From Clostridia bacterium (GTDB lineage Bacteria; Bacillota; Clostridia; UMGS1840): a DNA stretch of 64,000 bases. How positions within the stretch are numbered: the first letter of the stretch is position 1; every line of letters begins with the position of its first letter. The notes below the pieces were generated by a model that did no database searches, was not told where the DNA came from, and saw nothing but the letters and a program-made list of their open reading frames with translations. A program made the translations under genes and the position numbers. The stretch spans positions 72,299 to 136,298 of the forward strand of contig JAGAKI010000079.1 in the NCBI GenBank assembly GCA_017625695.1, in the 5' to 3' direction. Below are positions 2,568 through 51,648 of the stretch, piece after piece.

Positions 2568-3752
2568 TTACAGATTTTCTTTTAATACTTCTGCTAAAAT
2601 GCCGATACCCTCGATAATTTTATCGTCAGTCATGGTGGAATAATTTAAGCGGAAGCAGTTACAGGGTTTACTCATATCGGTCATAAAATTGGAACCCGGC
2701 ACAAATGCCACATTCTTTTCCACGCCTTTTTTCACAATGCCTGCCGCATCAATCCCTTCCGGTAAGGTACACCAGATGAATAAGCCCCCTTCCGGACGAG
2801 TATATTTCACAAAATCGGGGAAGTGTTTATCCATTTCGGATAACATCAGTTCACACTGATGTCCGTAGAGTTCTCTTGCTTTTGCAATATGTGCATCAAT
2901 ATCACAGGTTTTTAGCCATTCGGATGCAATTACCTGAGTTAACAGGTTGGTATGCACGTCGTTGACTTGTTTTGCAACCACCATTTTTTCCATAATTTCG
3001 GGAATCCCGTGGGTGAATCCAAGTCTTAAGCCGGGTGCCAAAATTTTGGAGAAGGAACCGAAATACATCACCGCATTTTCTGTATCCATAGATTTTAAAG
3101 TGGGTACGTTTTCTCCTTTGAACCGAAGTTCGCCATAGGGATTATCTTCAAAAATCACCACATTGTACTGATATGCCAAAGAAAGCAGTTTTTTTCTCTT
3201 TTCTAAACTCATAGTAATGCCGGTGGGATTCTGGAAGGTGGGAATCACGTAAATAATACGGACTCTGTCATCTGATTTTAAAATCTCTTCCAGTTTATCC
3301 AGATTCATCCCGTCATCTTCCACGGGGACGCCTTTTAATACAGCCCCATAGGTACGAAATGAGTTCAACGCCCCGATAAAGCTGGGTTCTTCCACAATGA
3401 TGGTATCACCGGGGTTTAAAATACTTTTGACTGCCAAATCCAACCCCTGCTGACCGCCGGTGGTGATGATGGTATTCGAGCCTTCCCGGTAGATGCCTTG
3501 TTTTTTCAGTCTGGCTTCTACCTGTTCAATCAAAGGAGTATACCCCTCGGTAATGCCGTACTGCAAGCATAAAGAGGGCATTTCGGTTAATACCTTCTGT
3601 GCAATCTCTTTGATTTCTTCCACAGGGAAGGTTAACGGAGAGGGATTTCCTCCCGCAAAGGAGATGATGCCGGGTTTTGCCATGGTTTTAAACATTTCAC
3701 GGATGGCAGAGCCTTGCATCGTTTTCATTGTGTCGGAAATATGATATTTCAT
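2568..3752 (-). CDS. PLP-dependent aminotransferase (class I/II)
   Basis: SFSKILAPGLRLG pyridoxal-Lys region. Start moved to MKYHISD (3752), which has a GAAAGGAAG RBS. Confidence 0.85.
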   Translation of the reverse strand: MKYHISDTMKTMQGSAIREMFKTMAKPGIISFAGGNPSPLTFPVEEIKEIAQKVLTEMPSLCLQYGITEGYTPLIEQVEARLKKQGIYREGSNTIITTGGQQGLDLAVKSILNPGDTIIVEEPSFIGALNSFRTYGAVLKGVPVEDDGMNLDKLEEILKSDDRVRIIYVIPTFQNPTGITMSLEKRKKLLSLAYQYNVVIFEDNPYGELRFKGENVPTLKSMDTENAVMYFGSFSKILAPGLRLGFTHGIPEIMEKMVVAKQVNDVHTNLLTQVIASEWLKTCDIDAHIAKARELYGHQCELMLSEMDKHFPDFVKYTRPEGGLFIWCTLPEGIDAAGIVKKGVEKNVAFVPGSNFMTDMSKPCNCFRLNYSTMTDDKIIEGIGILAEVLKENL

Positions 3753-36940: not shown

Positions 36941-37267
36941 GAGCGTGTCATCAAAATTTGGAACGAAAGGTTCCCGAGGGTGAATATTACGACCGCTTGA
37001 ATTTGTAAAACCCTTTCAAGCTAAGGCCAGACGGACAGCCGGGTCGAACGCCGAAACGCCGGATAAAAACATCCGGTTGGCAGGGAAAACCTGCCTTATT
37101 GATTGAGTTAGAAGCTCAAATTTTATAAGTTGGTTCCTTTACAACCATGTGCCAAACAGCACACATCGACTTGTGAAACGGTCAATAAGAGTACGCGTAT
37201 CAAACTCTGAAACCTATCCAAATTGTCAAGGGGTGTTTTGTCCCCTTTGGGAAAACGATTCTTACAA

Positions 37268-40325: not shown

Positions 40326-41530
40326 TGAAAAAAGTTCTTTTGTTATGGGTGGTATCGGTTTTTCTGGCGGTTTCTCTTTCCGGATGCGGCGGGCAGTCTG
40401 AAAAACTCACCTTAAATGTATATAACTGGGGAGAATATATTTCCGATGGCAGTGAAGATTCTCTGGATGTGAATGAAGAATTTGAAAACTACTGCCGTGA
40501 TGAGCTGGGGATGGAGGTTTCGGTCAACTATACCACCTACGCCAGCAACGAGGATATGTATAACAAACTAAAAAGCGGTTCCGCTACCTACGATGTTGTG
40601 ATTCCCTCGGAATATATGATTGAAAAAATGATAGCAGAGGATATGCTCTCTCCCCTTGATTTTTCCAATATCCCCAACTATCAGTATATTGACGACAATT
40701 TTAAAAACCTGTTTTTCGACCCGGACAATACCTATTCGGTGCCCTACACCTACGGAATGGTGGGTATTATCTACAACAGCGAAATGGTTGCAGAAGAAGA
40801 CTTGGGAAGCTGGGATTTACTCTGGAACGAAACCTACAAAGGGCAGATTCTGCAGTTCAACAACCCCCGTGATGCCTTTGGAACTGCTATCTACTGGGCA
40901 AAAGACAGCGTAAACTCCACCGACCCTGCGGTATGGCAGTCTGCAGTGGAAAAGTTAAAAGCACAGAAGCCCCTCATCCAAAGCTATGTTATGGACGAAA
41001 TTTTCAATAAAATGAAAAATGGCTCTGCTGCCATTGCTCCTTACTATGCAGGCGATTATCTCACCATGTATGATTCCAACGATTTATTAGGCTTCTACTA
41101 TCCCGAAGAGGGGACAAACGTGTTTGTAGATGCGATGTGCGTCCCCGCCTGTGCCAAAAATCAGGAGTTGGCAGAACTCTATATCAACTTTATGCTGGAA
41201 AAAGAAATTGCTATCGCCAATGCAGAATACATCGGCTATGCATCTCCCCATACCTTAGTCCGTGAAGATGAGGACTACATCGCCTATATGCAAGACTGGC
41301 ACGATGATGCAATGGAAATTCTCTACGCCCAAGACTCGGCAGTCAAAACCGAATATTACGAAAGTTTAGATACCGATACACTGTCATTGCAAAACAGTCT
41401 GTGGGAAACCTTAAAAATTGAAAATGCGGTGGAACCCTGGATTTATATGACTGCGGGAACCATTGTAGGAGCATTGATTTTATTCTTCCTATATAGCTAT
41501 TTTGTAAAAAGATACCGCAATCATTATTAA
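40325..41530 (+). CDS. potD: spermidine/putrescine-binding lipoprotein
   Basis: Lipobox LSGCGG and a PotD/PotF-type SBP body. An extra C-terminal hydrophobic helix (TAGTIVGALILFFLYSYF) is present. Confidence 0.85.
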   Translation: MKKVLLLWVVSVFLAVSLSGCGGQSEKLTLNVYNWGEYISDGSEDSLDVNEEFENYCRDELGMEVSVNYTTYASNEDMYNKLKSGSATYDVVIPSEYMIEKMIAEDMLSPLDFSNIPNYQYIDDNFKNLFFDPDNTYSVPYTYGMVGIIYNSEMVAEEDLGSWDLLWNETYKGQILQFNNPRDAFGTAIYWAKDSVNSTDPAVWQSAVEKLKAQKPLIQSYVMDEIFNKMKNGSAAIAPYYAGDYLTMYDSNDLLGFYYPEEGTNVFVDAMCVPACAKNQELAELYINFMLEKEIAIANAEYIGYASPHTLVREDEDYIAYMQDWHDDAMEILYAQDSAVKTEYYESLDTDTLSLQNSLWETLKIENAVEPWIYMTAGTIVGALILFFLYSYFVKRYRNHY

Positions 41531-41555
41531 AACAGAGTCACTGTTGTGTGAAAGG

Positions 41556-41603
41556 AAAAAGACGAAATTCAAATTTTTTACTTTTGAATTTCGTCTTTTT
41601 TTT
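41556..41603. terminator. bidirectional terminator module (family copy 1)
   Basis: A5-GACGAAATTCAAA-10 nt-TTTGAATTTCGTC-T8. Serves potD (+) and Cys-rich gene A (-). Confidence 0.85.
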
Positions 41604-41853
41604 ATATTTCACTTGATTTTATTTGTTCTTGTATTTCTTCTATCTTTTCTAATTTTAAAGTGTAATTCTCATTGCGGGGACACTCAATATGCACACATTC
41701 GTTACAAGGTTTTTTCCGAAAATGCTCAATACAACAACCCAAATAGTTACATTCGTCACAACAACATTCGTTCCCGTTTTCTCCGTTTCCCGGGCAGTCT
41801 TTTCCGCCATTTCCCGGAATCAGTTCAATTCCTGTAGGTCCGTCAATAATCAT
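41602..41853 (-). CDS. small cysteine-rich protein, paralog A (83 aa, 10 Cys)
   Basis: MIIDGPTGIELIPGNGGKDCPGNGENGNECCCDECNYLGCCIEHFRKKPCNECVHIECPRNENY.... GGAGG RBS 7 nt upstream. Only synonymous differences from copy C. Confidence 0.85.
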   Translation of the reverse strand: MIIDGPTGIELIPGNGGKDCPGNGENGNECCCDECNYLGCCIEHFRKKPCNECVHIECPRNENYTLKLEKIEEIQEQIKSSEI

Positions 41854-41865
41854 AGTTTTTCCTCC

Positions 41866-41899
41866 AAAAATAAAAAAGTGCGCAGCCGAAGCTACGCAC
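41866..41899 (-). terminator. leader terminator immediately upstream of the RBS of paralog A
   Basis: Minus strand GTGCGTAGC-TTCG-GCTGCGCAC followed by TTTTTTATTTTT, then GGAGG. Confidence 0.7.
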
Positions 41900-42059
41900 G
41901 AAAAATGCATAACTCCTTTGCTTGCAACAAAAATTGTTTCACACGGTATAATAAACCAAAAGTATGCGAAAACAGAGCATGCATTTTTACCTTAGTAAAA
42001 TGCACACTTATGGCGTTATTATACCACCAGTATCAATATACAATTTTTGTTGCAAAGTT

Positions 42060-42088
42060 ATTGTACCATCTTTTTAGAAAAATGTCAA
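42060..42088 (-). promoter_or_regulatory. promoter of paralog A
   Basis: Minus strand TTGACA-17 nt-TACAAT with an extended-10 TGG. Confidence 0.7.
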
Positions 42089-42094
42089 TCTTTG

Positions 42095-42244
42095 TTCATT
42101 TTTTTCTTTGATAGCAAAGAAAAAACGAACCAAAAAAAGAAACTACCGCCTGGTATTTTCGCAATCCCGGACATTCGTCTTTTGAACTGTGTATTCGATT
42201 GCGAAAATAAGGGCGGATTTTTTTCGTTTCGTCTTTCGATAACG
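42095..42244 (+). repeat. ~145-bp interspersed element, copy E3
   Basis: Same conserved CCGCCTGGTATTTTCGCAAT...ATTGCGAAAATAAGGGCGG core. Confidence 0.8.
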
Positions 42245-42423
42245 AAAATGGGTTATCTGCAACCTGACAGAGAAAACTACTATGTAATTGTTTGCAAGCG
42301 AATGATAGAACAGCCGTGCGGCGACTGAGCACTCGTGTAAAAGGGGTAAGGGGTTCGTTAAGGGGGATAGGGGGAATATCGAAAATTCCCCCTGCTCCCT
42401 TGACATAAAAAAACGAAAAAGTA

Positions 42424-42452
42424 TTGCAAAATTAGAATATTTATGATAAGAT
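42424..42452 (+). promoter_or_regulatory. promoter of paralog B
   Basis: TTGCAA-17 nt-TAAGAT with an extended-10 TGA. Confidence 0.6.
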
Positions 42453-42643
42453 AAAAGTGCTAAACAAACAGAATACTGTTCTATGGGAAAATCAGCCACA
42501 CTTACAGTTGGATATGATTCCTTATTTTTGTACACTCTAATCGTATGAATTTTGCTAAAAAACGCAGATTCCAAGCGGTTAGAGTGCTGGGTTGTTCCCT
42601 CTCTATTCTGTTTGTTTAGCGACTACGGGAGTTTGCGTTTTTT

Positions 42644-42675
42644 GTGCGTCAACGACCGTTGGCGCATTTTTTATT
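42644..42675 (+). terminator. leader terminator immediately upstream of the RBS of paralog B
   Basis: GTGCGTCAAC-GACC-GTTGGCGCAT followed by TTTTTATTT, then GAAGGAG. Confidence 0.65.
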
Positions 42676-42691
42676 TGAAGGAGAGAAATCT

Positions 42692-42943
42692 ATGATTATT
42701 GACGGACCTACAGGAATTGAACTGATTCCGGGAAATGGCGGAAAAGACTGTCCGGGCAACGGAGAAAACGGCAACGAATGTTGTTGCGACGAATGTAACT
42801 ATTTGGGTTGTTGTATTGAGCATTTCCGGAAAAAACCTTGTAACGAATGTGTGCATATTGAGTGTCCCCGCAATGAAAATTACGGATTACGACTGGAACG
42901 AATCCGTGCATTGGAAGAACAAATCAAAAACGATACGATATAA
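42692..42943 (+). CDS. small cysteine-rich protein, paralog B (83 aa)
   Basis: The first 65 aa are identical to A and C with at least 7 synonymous changes. The C-terminal 18 aa diverge (GLRLERIRALEEQIKNDTI). Confidence 0.85.
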   Translation: MIIDGPTGIELIPGNGGKDCPGNGENGNECCCDECNYLGCCIEHFRKKPCNECVHIECPRNENYGLRLERIRALEEQIKNDTI

Positions 42944-42978
42944 AAAAGAGGAAATTCATCTGAATTTCCTCTTTTTTT
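42944..42978 (+). terminator. Rho-independent terminator of paralog B
   Basis: AGAGGAAATTCA/TGAATTTCCTCT followed by T6. Confidence 0.8.
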
Positions 42979-43083
42979 CTGAAAAAACTGCAGAATACGC
43001 CGTTTATGGGAATCCATACACGGGTCAATGTGGGCATTCTCCCCTGTATTTTCCGAAAATTTCAAATTTTTTTGTAAAAACAC

Positions 43084-43112
43084 TTGACAAATGGGGTAAA
43101 ATCTGTTATCTT
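43084..43112 (+). promoter_or_regulatory. hrcA operon promoter
   Basis: TTGACA-17 nt-TATCTT with an upstream TG. Confidence 0.6.
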
Positions 43113-43119
43113 ATAGTTG

Positions 43120-43146
43120 TTAGCACTCAGACGAATAGAGTGCTAA
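43120..43146. promoter_or_regulatory. CIRCE operator (HrcA binding site)
   Basis: TTAGCACTC-N9-GAGTGCTAA, a perfect consensus. Confidence 0.95.
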
Positions 43147-43213
43147 CAACACAAAAACCCTTACAAACAAAGGATTTTCCAGATAGAATGTTATGGAAAG
43201 GAGCGGTTACCGA

Positions 43214-49030: not shown

Positions 49031-49282
49031 CTATATTTCACTTGATTTTATTTGCTCTTGTATTTCTTCTATCTTTTCTAATTTTAAAGTGTAATTCTCA
49101 TTGCGGGGACACTCAATATGCACACATTCGTTACAAGGTTTTTTTCGGAAATGCTCAATACAACACCCCAAATAGTTACATTCATCACAACAACATTCGT
49201 TCCCGTTTTCTCCGTTTCCCGGGCAGTCTTTTCCGCCATTCCCCGGAATCAGTTCAATTCCTGTAGGTCCGTCAATAATCAT
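49031..49282 (-). CDS. small cysteine-rich protein, paralog C (83 aa)
   Basis: The protein is identical to paralog A. Six synonymous nucleotide differences, and a TAG stop where A has TAA. Confidence 0.85.
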   Translation of the reverse strand: MIIDGPTGIELIPGNGGKDCPGNGENGNECCCDECNYLGCCIEHFRKKPCNECVHIECPRNENYTLKLEKIEEIQEQIKSSEI

Positions 49283-49295
49283 AGATATTTCCTCC

Positions 49296-49328
49296 AAAAA
49301 TAAAAAATGCGCAGCCGAAGCTACGCAC
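49296..49328 (-). terminator. leader terminator immediately upstream of the RBS of paralog C
   Basis: Minus strand GTGCGTAGC-TTCG-GCTGCGCAT followed by TTTTTTATTTTT, then GGAGG. Confidence 0.7.
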
Positions 49329-49490
49329 GAAAAATGCATAACTCCTTTGCTTGCGACAAAAATTTACATCTTAGGGCATGAAACTCCAAAAGTATGCAAA
49401 AACAGAGTATGCATTTTTACCAATAGTAAAAATACACACTTTCAGAGTAATTCATGCAGAGAATCAATATGAAATTTTTGTCGCAAAATT

Positions 49491-49519
49491 ATTGTACCAT
49501 AAATATTCTGATTTTGCAA
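49491..49519 (-). promoter_or_regulatory. promoter of paralog C
   Basis: Minus strand TTGCAA-17 nt-TACAAT with an extended-10 TGG. Confidence 0.65.
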
Positions 49520-49699
49520 TACTTTTTCGTTTTTTTATGTCAAGGGAGCAGGGGGAATTTTCGATATTCCCCCTATCCCCCTTAACGAACCCCTTACCCC
49601 TTTTACACGAGTGCTCAGTCAACCCACGGCTGTCCTATCCGACAATTTGGAAAACGAAAGAAAGATGTTCCACATTAGGCTTTTGGTAACCTATAATAT

Positions 49700-49851
49700 C
49701 GTTATCGAAAGACGAAACGAAAAAAATCCGCCCTTATTTTCGCAATTCTCTACCGTTATCAAACGACGGAGGTTCGGGATTGCGGAAATACCAGGCGGCA
49801 GTTTCTTTTTTTGGTTCGTTTTTTCTTTGCTGTCAAAGAAAAAAATGAACA
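49700..49851 (-). repeat. ~145-bp interspersed element, copy E4 (reverse orientation)
   Basis: The reverse complement matches E1 and E3. Confidence 0.8.
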
Positions 49852-49898
49852 TATAAAAAAATTTTAATTCCAAACAACGTTTGGTCACAACCACACAG

Positions 49899-49925
49899 CG
49901 GGACGATGTGGGCATCGTCCCCTAC
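49899..49925. repeat. REP-like palindromic hairpin (reverse orientation)
   Basis: CGGGACGATGTGGGCATCGTCCCCTAC. Confidence 0.85.
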
Positions 49926-50017: not shown

Positions 50018-50044
50018 CGGGACGGTGTGGGCACCGTTCCCTAC
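50018..50044. repeat. REP-like palindromic hairpin (reverse orientation, variant)
   Basis: CGGGACGGTGTGGGCACCGTTCCCTAC. Confidence 0.8.
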
Positions 50045-50916: not shown

Positions 50917-51408
50917 TTAACCTTTCACGTTGTAATCTGCGCACATCAGATTGGTGGCTTTGAATAATTTATGGGTATAAACAAAGGGACCGATCAGAAT
51001 GATGCTTCCCAATACGTTCCACAGCCAGAAATCTGCACAGGAGAACTTGTAATCGATATTTCTTCTTTTTAATTCGTTACCGATACGATTGGAAATTTTG
51101 TGGAGCCACACAATAGCAGCAATTCCAAGGGTAATGGGAGCAATAATGAAGTATAACAGGCAGTAATGCATGGTTCTTTTTCCGTCATAGCGGCTGGCAA
51201 CAATGTTGATATCGTTGCTGACGGAAGACATTACAACCAGACCGTAAATCCCGAAGGTAATCAGATTCAACAGGATATACTTCAAAAGACCTTTGTTGGT
51301 TTTTAACTGACCAACGGGTGCTTGGTACGATTGCACCGCAGCACCGCAGCCTACGCAGACAGCGGCACCTTCATTGATTTGTGCACCGCAGTTACTACAG
51401 AATTTCAT
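50917..51408 (-). CDS. zinc-ribbon / DUF4234-like membrane protein
   Basis: MKFCSNCGAQI..CVGCGA ribbon and a LLNLITFGIYGL region. Start follows a GAAGGAGGAAG RBS. Confidence 0.7.
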   Translation of the reverse strand: MKFCSNCGAQINEGAAVCVGCGAAVQSYQAPVGQLKTNKGLLKYILLNLITFGIYGLVVMSSVSNDINIVASRYDGKRTMHYCLLYFIIAPITLGIAAIVWLHKISNRIGNELKRRNIDYKFSCADFWLWNVLGSIILIGPFVYTHKLFKATNLMCADYNVKG

Positions 51409-51648
51409 AGTTTCTTCCTCCTTCTGATATGACACTTCCTAATATGTCATATTTTTACAAATTATAACATAATATTTGGTTCTTGACAAGTGGTATTTCA
51501 CAAAAAAACCTCATTTTTTCTTTACAATTTTGAGACAAAAGAGTATTTCATTCAGGAAAGAACCCAAAAACCTTGTAATTTACGGAAAAAATTTCATCCA
51601 CACCTTGCAAAAAAAGGAAAAGCATATTATAATATAGAATAGTGGAAT

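Follow-up and report, generated by a model that had tools for sequence, protein, structure and literature searches.

The 64,000-nt stretch of a Clostridia bacterium genome analyzed here (GenBank assembly GCA_017625695.1, contig JAGAKI010000079.1, positions 72,299 to 136,298; hereafter, the window) codes for an 83-amino acid (aa) cysteine-rich (Cys-rich) protein three times, in genes A, B, and C. Each gene is preceded by a promoter, a perfect long-range helix of 15-17 nt, nested helices, an intrinsic terminator and a ribosome-binding site (RBS). We find that leaders A, B, and C are members of an undescribed 5' leader RNA family, outside any catalogued RNA family, and that the leader is an RNA element, not an invertible DNA switch. 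These are probably cis-acting, terminator-based leader RNAs with the competing helices described below, and most likely they halt transcription before the gene unless a signal intervenes.

Leader RNAs upstream of the Cys-rich genes

The three leaders and their genes have the following features, given in window positions.

Leader A
42060-42088, minus strand: promoter TTGACA-17-TACAAT with TG (extended -10), 11/12 in the consensus scan, the -10 box ending 4 nt upstream of P1
42040-42055, minus strand: 5' arm of helix P1 (TTGCAACAAAAATTGT), exact inverted repeat, 16 nt
41922-41937, minus strand: 3' arm of P1, from the exact inverted repeat and the fold
41945-42025, minus strand: helix P2 (42016-42025 with 41945-41954), enclosing P2a/P3, from the fold
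41995-42005, minus strand: segment 1, the 5' strand of the apical hairpin P3 (GUGCAUUUUAC), from the fold
41973-41988, minus strand: segment 2, comprising the A-run, P3 3' strand and CUCUG bulge (AAAAAUGCAUGCUCUG), partner of segment 1 or segment 3
41901-41917, minus strand: segment 3, the linker AGGAGUUAUGCAUUUUU, partner of segment 2 (putative anti-antiterminator) or of the terminator 5' half (putative antiterminator)
41866-41899, minus strand: intrinsic terminator (stem 41878-41899, UUCG loop; terminator scan) and U-tract (41866-41877)
41861-41865, minus strand: Shine-Dalgarno (SD) sequence GGAGG, with the gene A start at 41853
41602-41853, minus strand: gene A, 83-aa Cys-rich protein without a Pfam family

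Leader B
42424-42452, plus strand: promoter TTGCAA-17-TAAGAT with TG, 8/12, weak by consensus and below the scan threshold
42459-42475, plus strand: P1 5' arm, exact inverted repeat, 17 nt
42604-42620, plus strand: P1 3' arm, exact inverted repeat, 17 nt
42547-42572, plus strand: apical hairpin, with segment 1 at 42547-42555 and segment 2 (AAAAAACGCAGAUUCC) at 42557-42572
42627-42643, plus strand: segment 3, the linker GGGAGUUUGCGUUUUUU, 16 contiguous pairs with segment 2, -21.0 kcal/mol
42644-42685, plus strand: terminator (42644-42667, by scan), U-tract (42668-42676) and SD (42678-42685)
42692-42943, plus strand: gene B, Cys-rich protein, 88% identical to A and identical to P0001

Leader C
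49491-49519, minus strand: promoter TTGCAA-17-TACAAT with TG, 9/12 in the consensus scan
49351-49486, minus strand: structured domain, with P1 arms 49472-49486 / 49351-49365 (15 nt) and P2 49451-49457 / 49376-49382
49426-49440 and 49403-49418, minus strand: segments 1 and 2, respectively
49291-49346, minus strand: linker to SD, with segment 3 (49330-49346), terminator (49307-49328, by scan), U-tract (49296-49306) and SD (49291-49295)
49031-49282, minus strand: gene C, Cys-rich protein identical to A

The arm pairs are 100% complementary and spaced by 102 nt (A), 106 nt (C), and 128 nt (B), confirming for all three leaders the exact inverted repeats reported in the initial annotation of this DNA. 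The promoters it proposed for A and C were found by the consensus scan, and that of B is present in the sequence; its terminators near the SD were all found by the terminator scan, with U-tracts reaching up to the SD. Directly upstream of the Cys-rich genes, the leader promoter is the only promoter-like site. Leader folds are far better than those of shuffled sequences, with z = -6.4 (A), -6.9 (C), and -5.3 (B), and none of 200 shuffles as good. The minimum free energy folds of A and C show the nested helices P1, P2, and P3, as annotated. The exact arms, together with these z-scores, demonstrate that the leader observation is real, not a chance finding. The folds also reproduce the paired A/C differences that had been taken as compensatory changes, but A and C are recent paralogues with identical proteins, and real covariation comes from the wider family.

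Some 50 distinct homologous leaders, found in genomes, metagenomes, and prophage contigs, have the same layout; among them are those of the closest homologues (loci L001, L003-L013, and L015-L021) and of the more distant L029, L033, L040, and L052. Their arms vary in sequence, yet always pair. A covariance-model alignment was adopted after a plain MAFFT alignment analyzed with RNAalifold had missed P1 and P2, because of indels. The covariance model R1, built from five homologous leaders, matches leaders A (E 1e-10) and C (E 1e-8) and, weakly, B (0.07) in the window, and about 20 genome loci and three viral contigs elsewhere. In metagenome contigs fetched by a DNA pattern, there are at least 27 model matches among the matches listed; of 120 stretches listed in this pattern scan, approximately three quarters were chance matches rejected by the model.

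No Rfam family matched the leaders in a scan of the whole window at gathering thresholds. In Rfam 15, there was no credible match at the leaders with E <= 10 in the region 41500-43200, and no match with E <= 0.1 at five further leader loci. A literature search found no description of the leader family.

Leaders occur in three copies in this window, in two copies in each of L010, L018, L052, and L168, and in two GenBank gut "Bacteriophage sp." contigs (MT835845, MT837627), while a plasmid collection yielded no leader match. The leader-bearing records are labelled Oscillospiraceae, Monoglobus, Lachnospiraceae, and unclassified Clostridia bacteria, that is, largely uncultured gut Clostridia.

The leader unit has a constant order: an extended -10 promoter of the sigma-A type, a rod-like domain, a short linker (CGGAG...UUUUU), the intrinsic terminator, and the RBS. 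The rod of 35-45 bp, with two asymmetric internal loops and few invariant unpaired bases, starts within approximately 2 nt of the predicted transcription start and is comprised of P1 (12-19 bp), an AAUAU internal loop, P2, a 3'-side bulge of 13-19 nt with CUCUG, and the apical P3 with an A-run. In 23 of 27 leaders TGnTAnnnT is followed by 4 nt and then by the first base of P1; given this fixed distance, transcription would begin at or near the G of UUGCGAC, which would place the 5' end of the RNA within P1. In copy C the 16-bp apical hairpin followed by CUGUUUUU (49406-49440, minus strand) itself scored as terminator-like, and the U-rich stretch after the apical hairpin is kept across the leader family; it might act as a pause site during folding.

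Two points of the initial annotation have to be revised here. The stretches described in it as conserved and unpaired do pair, AAGUG(UG) with GCAUACUU, and CUCUG, in an alternative helix, with GGAG of the linker. Copy B has the same arrangement as A and C, as stated there, but its leader is not unrelated to theirs: it shares with other leaders the A-rich apical loop, a GGAG...U-run linker complementary to this loop, the terminator, and the RBS, and falls into a longer subtype together with L005, L006, L013-L021, and L029. Besides the kinship of copy B, the annotation had missed the helix between the inside of the rod and the linker, and the fact that the leader is not specific to Cys-rich genes.

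Several candidate features of the leaders were rejected. Upstream in-frame ATG codons in A and C, opening 102-aa open reading frames (ORFs), do not represent leader peptides: the start codon is not kept in homologues (GAUACAU and GAGACAC variants), and the reading is also ruled out by GGAG being only 2 nt from the ATG. An antisense promoter in leader A (TTGCAA-19-TATAAT, plus strand) lacks conservation in C or homologues. Finally, sequences of the P1/P2 internal loop do not match the GA/AG consensus of a kink-turn.

Alternative helices and the terminator

Segment 2, on the 3' side of P3, is complementary not only to segment 1, but also, over 14-18 bp, to segment 3, the linker directly before the terminator. 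This 2:3 helix was exposed by the same RNAalifold analysis that had missed P1 and P2. All leaders tested (33 of the short type, 11 of the long type) can form this helix, with energies of -13 to -21 kcal/mol (-15.1 kcal/mol in leader A), and its compensatory pairs are exemplified by AAAAAGUGUUUUCUCU with GGAGAGACACUUUUU, AAAAGGUAUUUCCUCU with GAGGAUAAUACUUUUU, and AAAAAUGCAAAUUCC with GGGAGUUUGCAUUUU.

Covariation of the 2:3 helix was assessed in a MAFFT alignment of core segments of 38 distinct leaders, fitted to no structure. Two-sided changes are observed in 9 of its 15 pairs, and 93% of cells are paired. When the 2:3 helix and the terminator were counted jointly, no shuffle out of 500 equalled or exceeded the observed value for any of five measures, and only 30-67% of cells were paired in slid controls. 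For P1, in an alignment fitted to the covariance model, all 13 modelled pairs (13/13) show two-sided changes and 98.8% of cells are paired, compared to 33-52% in slid controls. The covariation among homologues that the initial annotation had suggested looking for is present in both helices. A partner-swap test on duplex energies (5000 permutations) gave z = -9.0 for the 2:3 helix, -8.0 for P3, -12.7 for the terminator, and -4.7 for the antiterminator considered below, while two negative-control pairings had z of about -1. These results, along with the covariation, indicate that segment 2 keeps two mutually exclusive partners, segments 1 and 3.

Besides segment 2, the linker can pair with the terminator's 5' half and loop. 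This putative antiterminator has, in A and C, 12 of 12 pairs (GGAGUUAUGCAU with GUGCGUAGCUUC) and an energy of -16.4 kcal/mol (z = -5.6 in leader A). Over 33 leaders the complementarity ranges from -7 to -19.5 kcal/mol, with a mean z of -3.6 relative to shuffled linkers, and in the alignment 86% of cells are paired, compared to 31-68% in slid controls.

We propose a scheme of five segments, where 1:2 is P3, 2:3 captures the linker, 3:4 is the antiterminator (segment 4 being the terminator 5' half and loop), and 4:5 is the terminator. The combination of 2:3 and 4:5 would lead to termination, and that of 1:2 and 3:4, to read-through. Freeing segment 2 costs 1-11 kcal/mol and formation of 2:3 gains 14-20 kcal/mol; the terminator is stabler than the antiterminator in most copies. 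Nearest-neighbour energies, with no pseudoknot penalty applied, make the terminating set more stable by 14 kcal/mol on average, a balance suggesting that the default state is OFF. The CUCUG bulge is single-stranded in the rod and pairs with the part of the linker made first (CGGAG). During transcription, GGAG of the linker may seize this bulge as a toehold, and the linker would then displace the 5' strand of P3, starting from the base of P3. An effector holding P3 and the bulge, be it a ligand, a protein, or a physical cue, would stop the displacement and switch the gene ON.

A number of observations weigh against this cis-acting switch. Covariation of the antiterminator is not above that of shuffles (87 of 500 reach the observed percentage paired), its energy is weak in L001, L004, L009, and L018 (-7 to -9 kcal/mol), and it is not obvious in the long subtype, including copy B; for these reasons we treat its formation as plausible from conserved complementarity, not from covariation. 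With respect to P1 and P2, the 2:3 helix forms a pseudoknot, and its energies are given without a pseudoknot penalty or steric terms. The leader sequences are related, so that shuffle and permutation tests overstate independence. The transcription start, premature 3' ends, and read-through, as well as which way the leader switches and whether it has an effector, are all inferred. Finally, the few invariant unpaired bases and the heterogeneous downstream genes, which lack a functional coherence indicating a ligand, are both atypical for metabolite aptamers; a rod of this kind is less typical of them than of protein-binding or purely structural leaders.

The position of P1 at the predicted 5' end suggests an additional role as a stabiliser, with P1 probably shielding that end of the transcript. 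A 5' stabiliser stem combined with an attenuator, one of the readings offered in the initial annotation, is thus compatible with our data and probably true in part, given the extended -10 box exactly 4 nt before P1 in most leaders. A wholly static leader, in which P1 is a 5' stabiliser only and the terminator is a constitutive partial brake setting low expression, would agree with P1 lying so near the predicted start in nearly all copies, with the lack of an identified effector, and with the small number of invariant unpaired bases. Still, we consider it improbable, as it leaves unexplained both the complementarity of segment 2 to segments 1 and 3, maintained via compensatory changes, and that of the linker to the terminator 5' half.

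Another possibility, to which we give little credence, is that the units are independent small RNA genes, each promoter-terminator unit yielding a stable trans-acting RNA of about 190 nt, and the gene being expressed only by leakage. Strong promoters, strong terminators, the default terminated state, hairpins protecting both ends, and several copies per genome would all fit, and CUCU/UUCC motifs binding ribosome-binding sites provide an example of trans action. On the other hand, nearly every copy for which the downstream sequence is long enough is followed by a co-oriented ORF; the SD of the Cys-rich genes directly adjoins the U-tract; the leader promoter is the only promoter-like site immediately upstream, so that gene expression seems to depend on read-through; covarying, mutually exclusive helices point to a cis switch; and candidate seeds differ among copies in one genome. 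The cis-switch and small RNA roles are not mutually exclusive and can coexist. The undescribed cis-regulatory attenuator suggested in the initial annotation is the reading that agrees best with covariation in about 50 leaders, mutually exclusive helices ending in a terminator, and the lack of Rfam matches.

RNA helix or invertible DNA

Mismatches in the helices allow one to distinguish an RNA helix from a DNA repeat. Among non-Watson-Crick cells, 34 G·U and 2 A·C are observed in P1 (33 distinct leaders), and 83 G·U and 8 A·C in the 2:3 helix. As a DNA repeat should give both types equally, this excess of G·U means that the arms evolve as a strand-specific RNA helix.

Inversion was checked at the level of assembled sequence, in 14 independent contigs of this species from approximately 10 samples. 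Every contig reaching a leader has the reference orientation of A, B, or C, with 99-100% identity over the whole overlap, and in-silico inverted leader copies have no contiguous match among these 14 contigs. Approximately 44-50 family members all have one orientation relative to the linker. Short contigs end at the points of divergence between the A and C paralogues rather than at inversion junctions; the breaks are thus explained by the A/C paralogy. No recombinase is seen among the called neighbours (HrcA, GrpE, DnaJ, EamA, SBP, BPD_transp, DUF2752, TM2), although one could act in trans.

These data bear on the remaining suggestion of the initial annotation, a DNA switch in which the 15-17 bp arms are recombinase sites and flipping of the enclosed 102-128 bp alters terminator formation, as at cwpV and flgB of Clostridioides difficile, known invertible switches. 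The leaders do resemble these systems in having inverted repeats between the promoter and the ORF, leader-terminator control, and surface-protein cargo. Moreover, the repeats are perfect, many downstream genes code for surface or secreted proteins, which phase variation typically controls, many contigs end near Cys-rich genes, and inversion would remove the CUCUG part of the linker's target, making an effect of orientation on termination conceivable. Unlike cwpV and flgB, however, no inversion is seen in the species contigs or in any family member, and the repeats show covariation and the G·U bias of an RNA helix. The inside of the arms covaries with the linker outside them, and the arms differ widely even within one genome (CAGUAAAAUUUCA and UUGCGACAUAAAU in L010). 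Given the absence of inverted contigs, the strand-specific mismatches, and the covariation, the invertible switch is not supported, and we regard it as highly improbable.

The same holds for a Correia-like miniature inverted-repeat mobile element with the arms as its ends, carrying or creating a promoter and a hairpin by chance. Terminal inverted repeats, small size, and many copies before unrelated genes, prophages included, would be expected of it. Yet the conserved unit exceeds the arms on both sides, with the promoter at the fixed 4 nt upstream and, on the downstream side, the linker, terminator, and RBS; within a genome, the copies have diverged strongly in sequence and still pair, which is a sign of selection on RNA structure, not of recent transposition; and no target-site duplication is evident in the flanks read. 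A mobile origin of this kind is very unlikely.

Downstream genes, genomic context and related systems

The leader RNA is not specific to Cys-rich genes. A co-oriented ORF is found within approximately 110 nt in nearly all leader copies with enough downstream sequence, and apart from Cys-rich genes the following products are encoded downstream.

L010, L011, L012, L018: Cu_amine_oxidN1 protein, with the second leader directly after the Cys-rich gene
L124: VanZ
L162: DnaJ-domain protein
L164: zinc ribbon with Ltp domains
L149, L198: zinc-ribbon proteins
L168: zinc ribbon with BspA-type leucine-rich repeats (LRR_5)
L204, L205: lipoprotein or secreted protein resembling leucine-rich repeat proteins, judged by eye
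L118: M23 peptidase
L158, L169: another small Cys-rich family (MKCEN..C)
L196, L203: lipoproteins
L224, 752-1244 (IMG/VR contig): 99-aa membrane protein, beside the endolysin gene of a prophage fragment

The prophage fragment of L224 contains tail genes and a diversity-generating retroelement (reverse transcriptase and Avd), and the leader unit is oriented opposite to the late genes; from its moron-like position, the gene of the 99-aa membrane protein appears to be a prophage moron. L222 and L237, listed with L224, are further viral contigs with the leader. In L052 (1884-3430) two leader copies are 930 nt apart. The first copy precedes a short ORF similar to the C-terminus of a HicB/Arc-like antitoxin (..YSGKFVVRVPKSLHRSLAAAAEREGVSLNQYALYKLSK), rather than a Cys-rich gene. 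The antitoxin-like sequence is found again downstream of the Cys-rich gene in the second unit, and the arrangement looks like a rearranged tandem duplication.

The Cys-rich proteins matched no family in a Pfam scan, and an AlphaFold2 model from 31 sequences, with pLDDT (predicted local distance difference test) of 60, was too poor for a fold search. The family is frequent in uncultured Clostridia, with 135 protein clusters and at least 485 genome loci. Distant homologues (L022, L024, L026, L031, L034-L036, L039, L041, L060; L043, L058, L075; L080) have no leader RNA; there, a divergent Cro/C1-type helix-turn-helix (HTH) gene (Pfam HTH_26 / HTH_3) adjoins the Cys-rich gene, with a long-armed palindrome (e.g., TAGACTAATACATTATATAATGTATTAGTCTA) between the two. 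The HTH gene and the palindrome look like a repressor-operator pair, suggesting that the Cys-rich gene family is regulated differently in different lineages. A close homologue in L002 (approximately 2700-3000) keeps only the terminator 3' half, U-tract, and RBS of the leader, with an unrelated sequence joined upstream, which indicates leader loss by a natural deletion or rearrangement. In the window, no leader was found upstream of another zinc-ribbon gene (50917-51435).

Upstream of the B and C promoters, a block of approximately 390 nt is duplicated with 87-92% identity (42079-42468, plus strand; inverted copy at 49475-49865). It contains an AT-rich hairpin (42091-42134), a long hairpin CCGCC..AUUUUCGCAAUC...GAUUGCGAAAAU..GGCGG (about 42150-42215), and a G-rich stretch ending in GGGGGAATATCGAAAATTCCCCC and followed by TGCTCCCTT (42386-42401), and has no Rfam match. 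The TGCTCCCTT motif is also found just upstream of the leader -35 box in other species (L010, L012). A palindrome resembling repetitive extragenic palindromes, CGGGACGATGTGGGCATCGTCCCCT, occurs three times in the window (43021-43045, 49899-49923, and 50018-50042), and palindromes resembling it are present upstream of leaders in L003, L008, and L009. The sole Rfam match in the window above the gathering threshold is the ldcC / SpF59 RNA (RF02440, 63 bits) at 36990-37054 (plus strand), upstream of genes for a spermidine/putrescine-type ABC transporter, the end of which adjoins gene A.

The mixed cargo, mostly envelope-related or of unknown function, suggests a global cue rather than a pathway metabolite. 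As the leader precedes many genes that are not Cys-rich, metals, thiols, and Fe-S metabolites, named in the initial annotation as candidate ligands, lose their basis as privileged candidates. The effector may, tentatively, be a protein, and no conserved neighbouring gene was seen as a candidate cognate RNA-binding protein at the loci examined. A small ligand or ion is a somewhat doubtful candidate, and a mechanism with no effector, or with a physical or kinetic cue, seems unlikely. We would also only hesitantly suggest, as a rather doubtful possibility, that the leader combines the aptamer and the expression platform of a new riboswitch class, sensing a global signal and switching on a dispersed set of accessory genes. 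The signal could then be a second messenger, an ion, or an envelope- or redox-related small molecule; the set would comprise surface, membrane, and Cys-rich or zinc-ribbon proteins of gut Clostridia and their prophages; and the base of P3 with the conserved 13-19 nt bulge would be the sensing site.

While the leader family is new, the kind of regulator, with the logic of a three-tier attenuator or a strand-displacing ON switch, appears to be already known by analogy. The PyrR-controlled leaders of the Bacillus subtilis pyr operon have a terminator, an antiterminator, and an anti-antiterminator. The leaders studied here similarly sit between a sigma-A promoter and an RBS, with nested helix competition upstream of an intrinsic terminator, and an upstream helix, here 2:3, would sequester the antiterminator strand so that the terminator forms. 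Unlike pyr leaders, they have neither a PyrR-type binding loop nor an Rfam match, their downstream genes do not constitute a metabolic operon, and the putative anti-antiterminator is a long-range pairing of the rod apex with an outside linker, that is, a pseudoknot instead of a local hairpin.

The adenine pbuE and ZTP (5-aminoimidazole-4-carboxamide riboside 5'-triphosphate) riboswitches are transcriptional ON switches using co-transcriptional strand displacement. The common features would be a structured 5' domain followed by an expression platform, a switching strand that invades unless the domain is stabilised, and termination by default. However, instead of a compact multi-helix junction, the domain here forms a long, irregular hairpin in which few unpaired bases are invariant; P1 (12-19 bp) is far too stable to serve as the switching helix, the switch being at the apex; and the gene associations are heterogeneous. 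The geometry is thus unusual, in that the switching strand occupies the apex of the long, +1-anchored rod and would be captured by a linker lying beyond it.

The ermC, aprE, and ompA leaders carry 5'-terminal stabiliser stem-loops. As in these, a helix seems to lie within a few nucleotides of the 5' end, judging from the fixed 4-nt distance to the -10 box; in contrast to them, this helix closes a large conserved domain coupled to a terminator, whereas a stabiliser alone needs no inner switch. The cyclic di-GMP (c-di-GMP) riboswitches of Clostridia are reused before many unrelated surface, secreted, and membrane protein genes, also in prophages. The likeness to them is in the kind of regulon only, as there is no sequence or structure match to GEMM-I/II.

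For screens of invertible DNA, the family demonstrates that perfect inverted repeats between a promoter and a gene can be an RNA helix, and that counting of G·U vs. A·C separates the two readings cheaply. It also provides a natural case for co-transcriptional strand displacement, with a toehold bulge and an apical hairpin that would be captured by a linker outside a long rod. The analysis adds an uncatalogued and well-supported structured leader family from largely uncultured gut Clostridia, in which one common regulatory switch may link dozens of "hypothetical" genes with no other evident connection, coding for surface, membrane, and Cys-rich proteins and including a likely prophage moron. 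Identification of the effector would define the regulon and its signal in organisms with almost no genetics.

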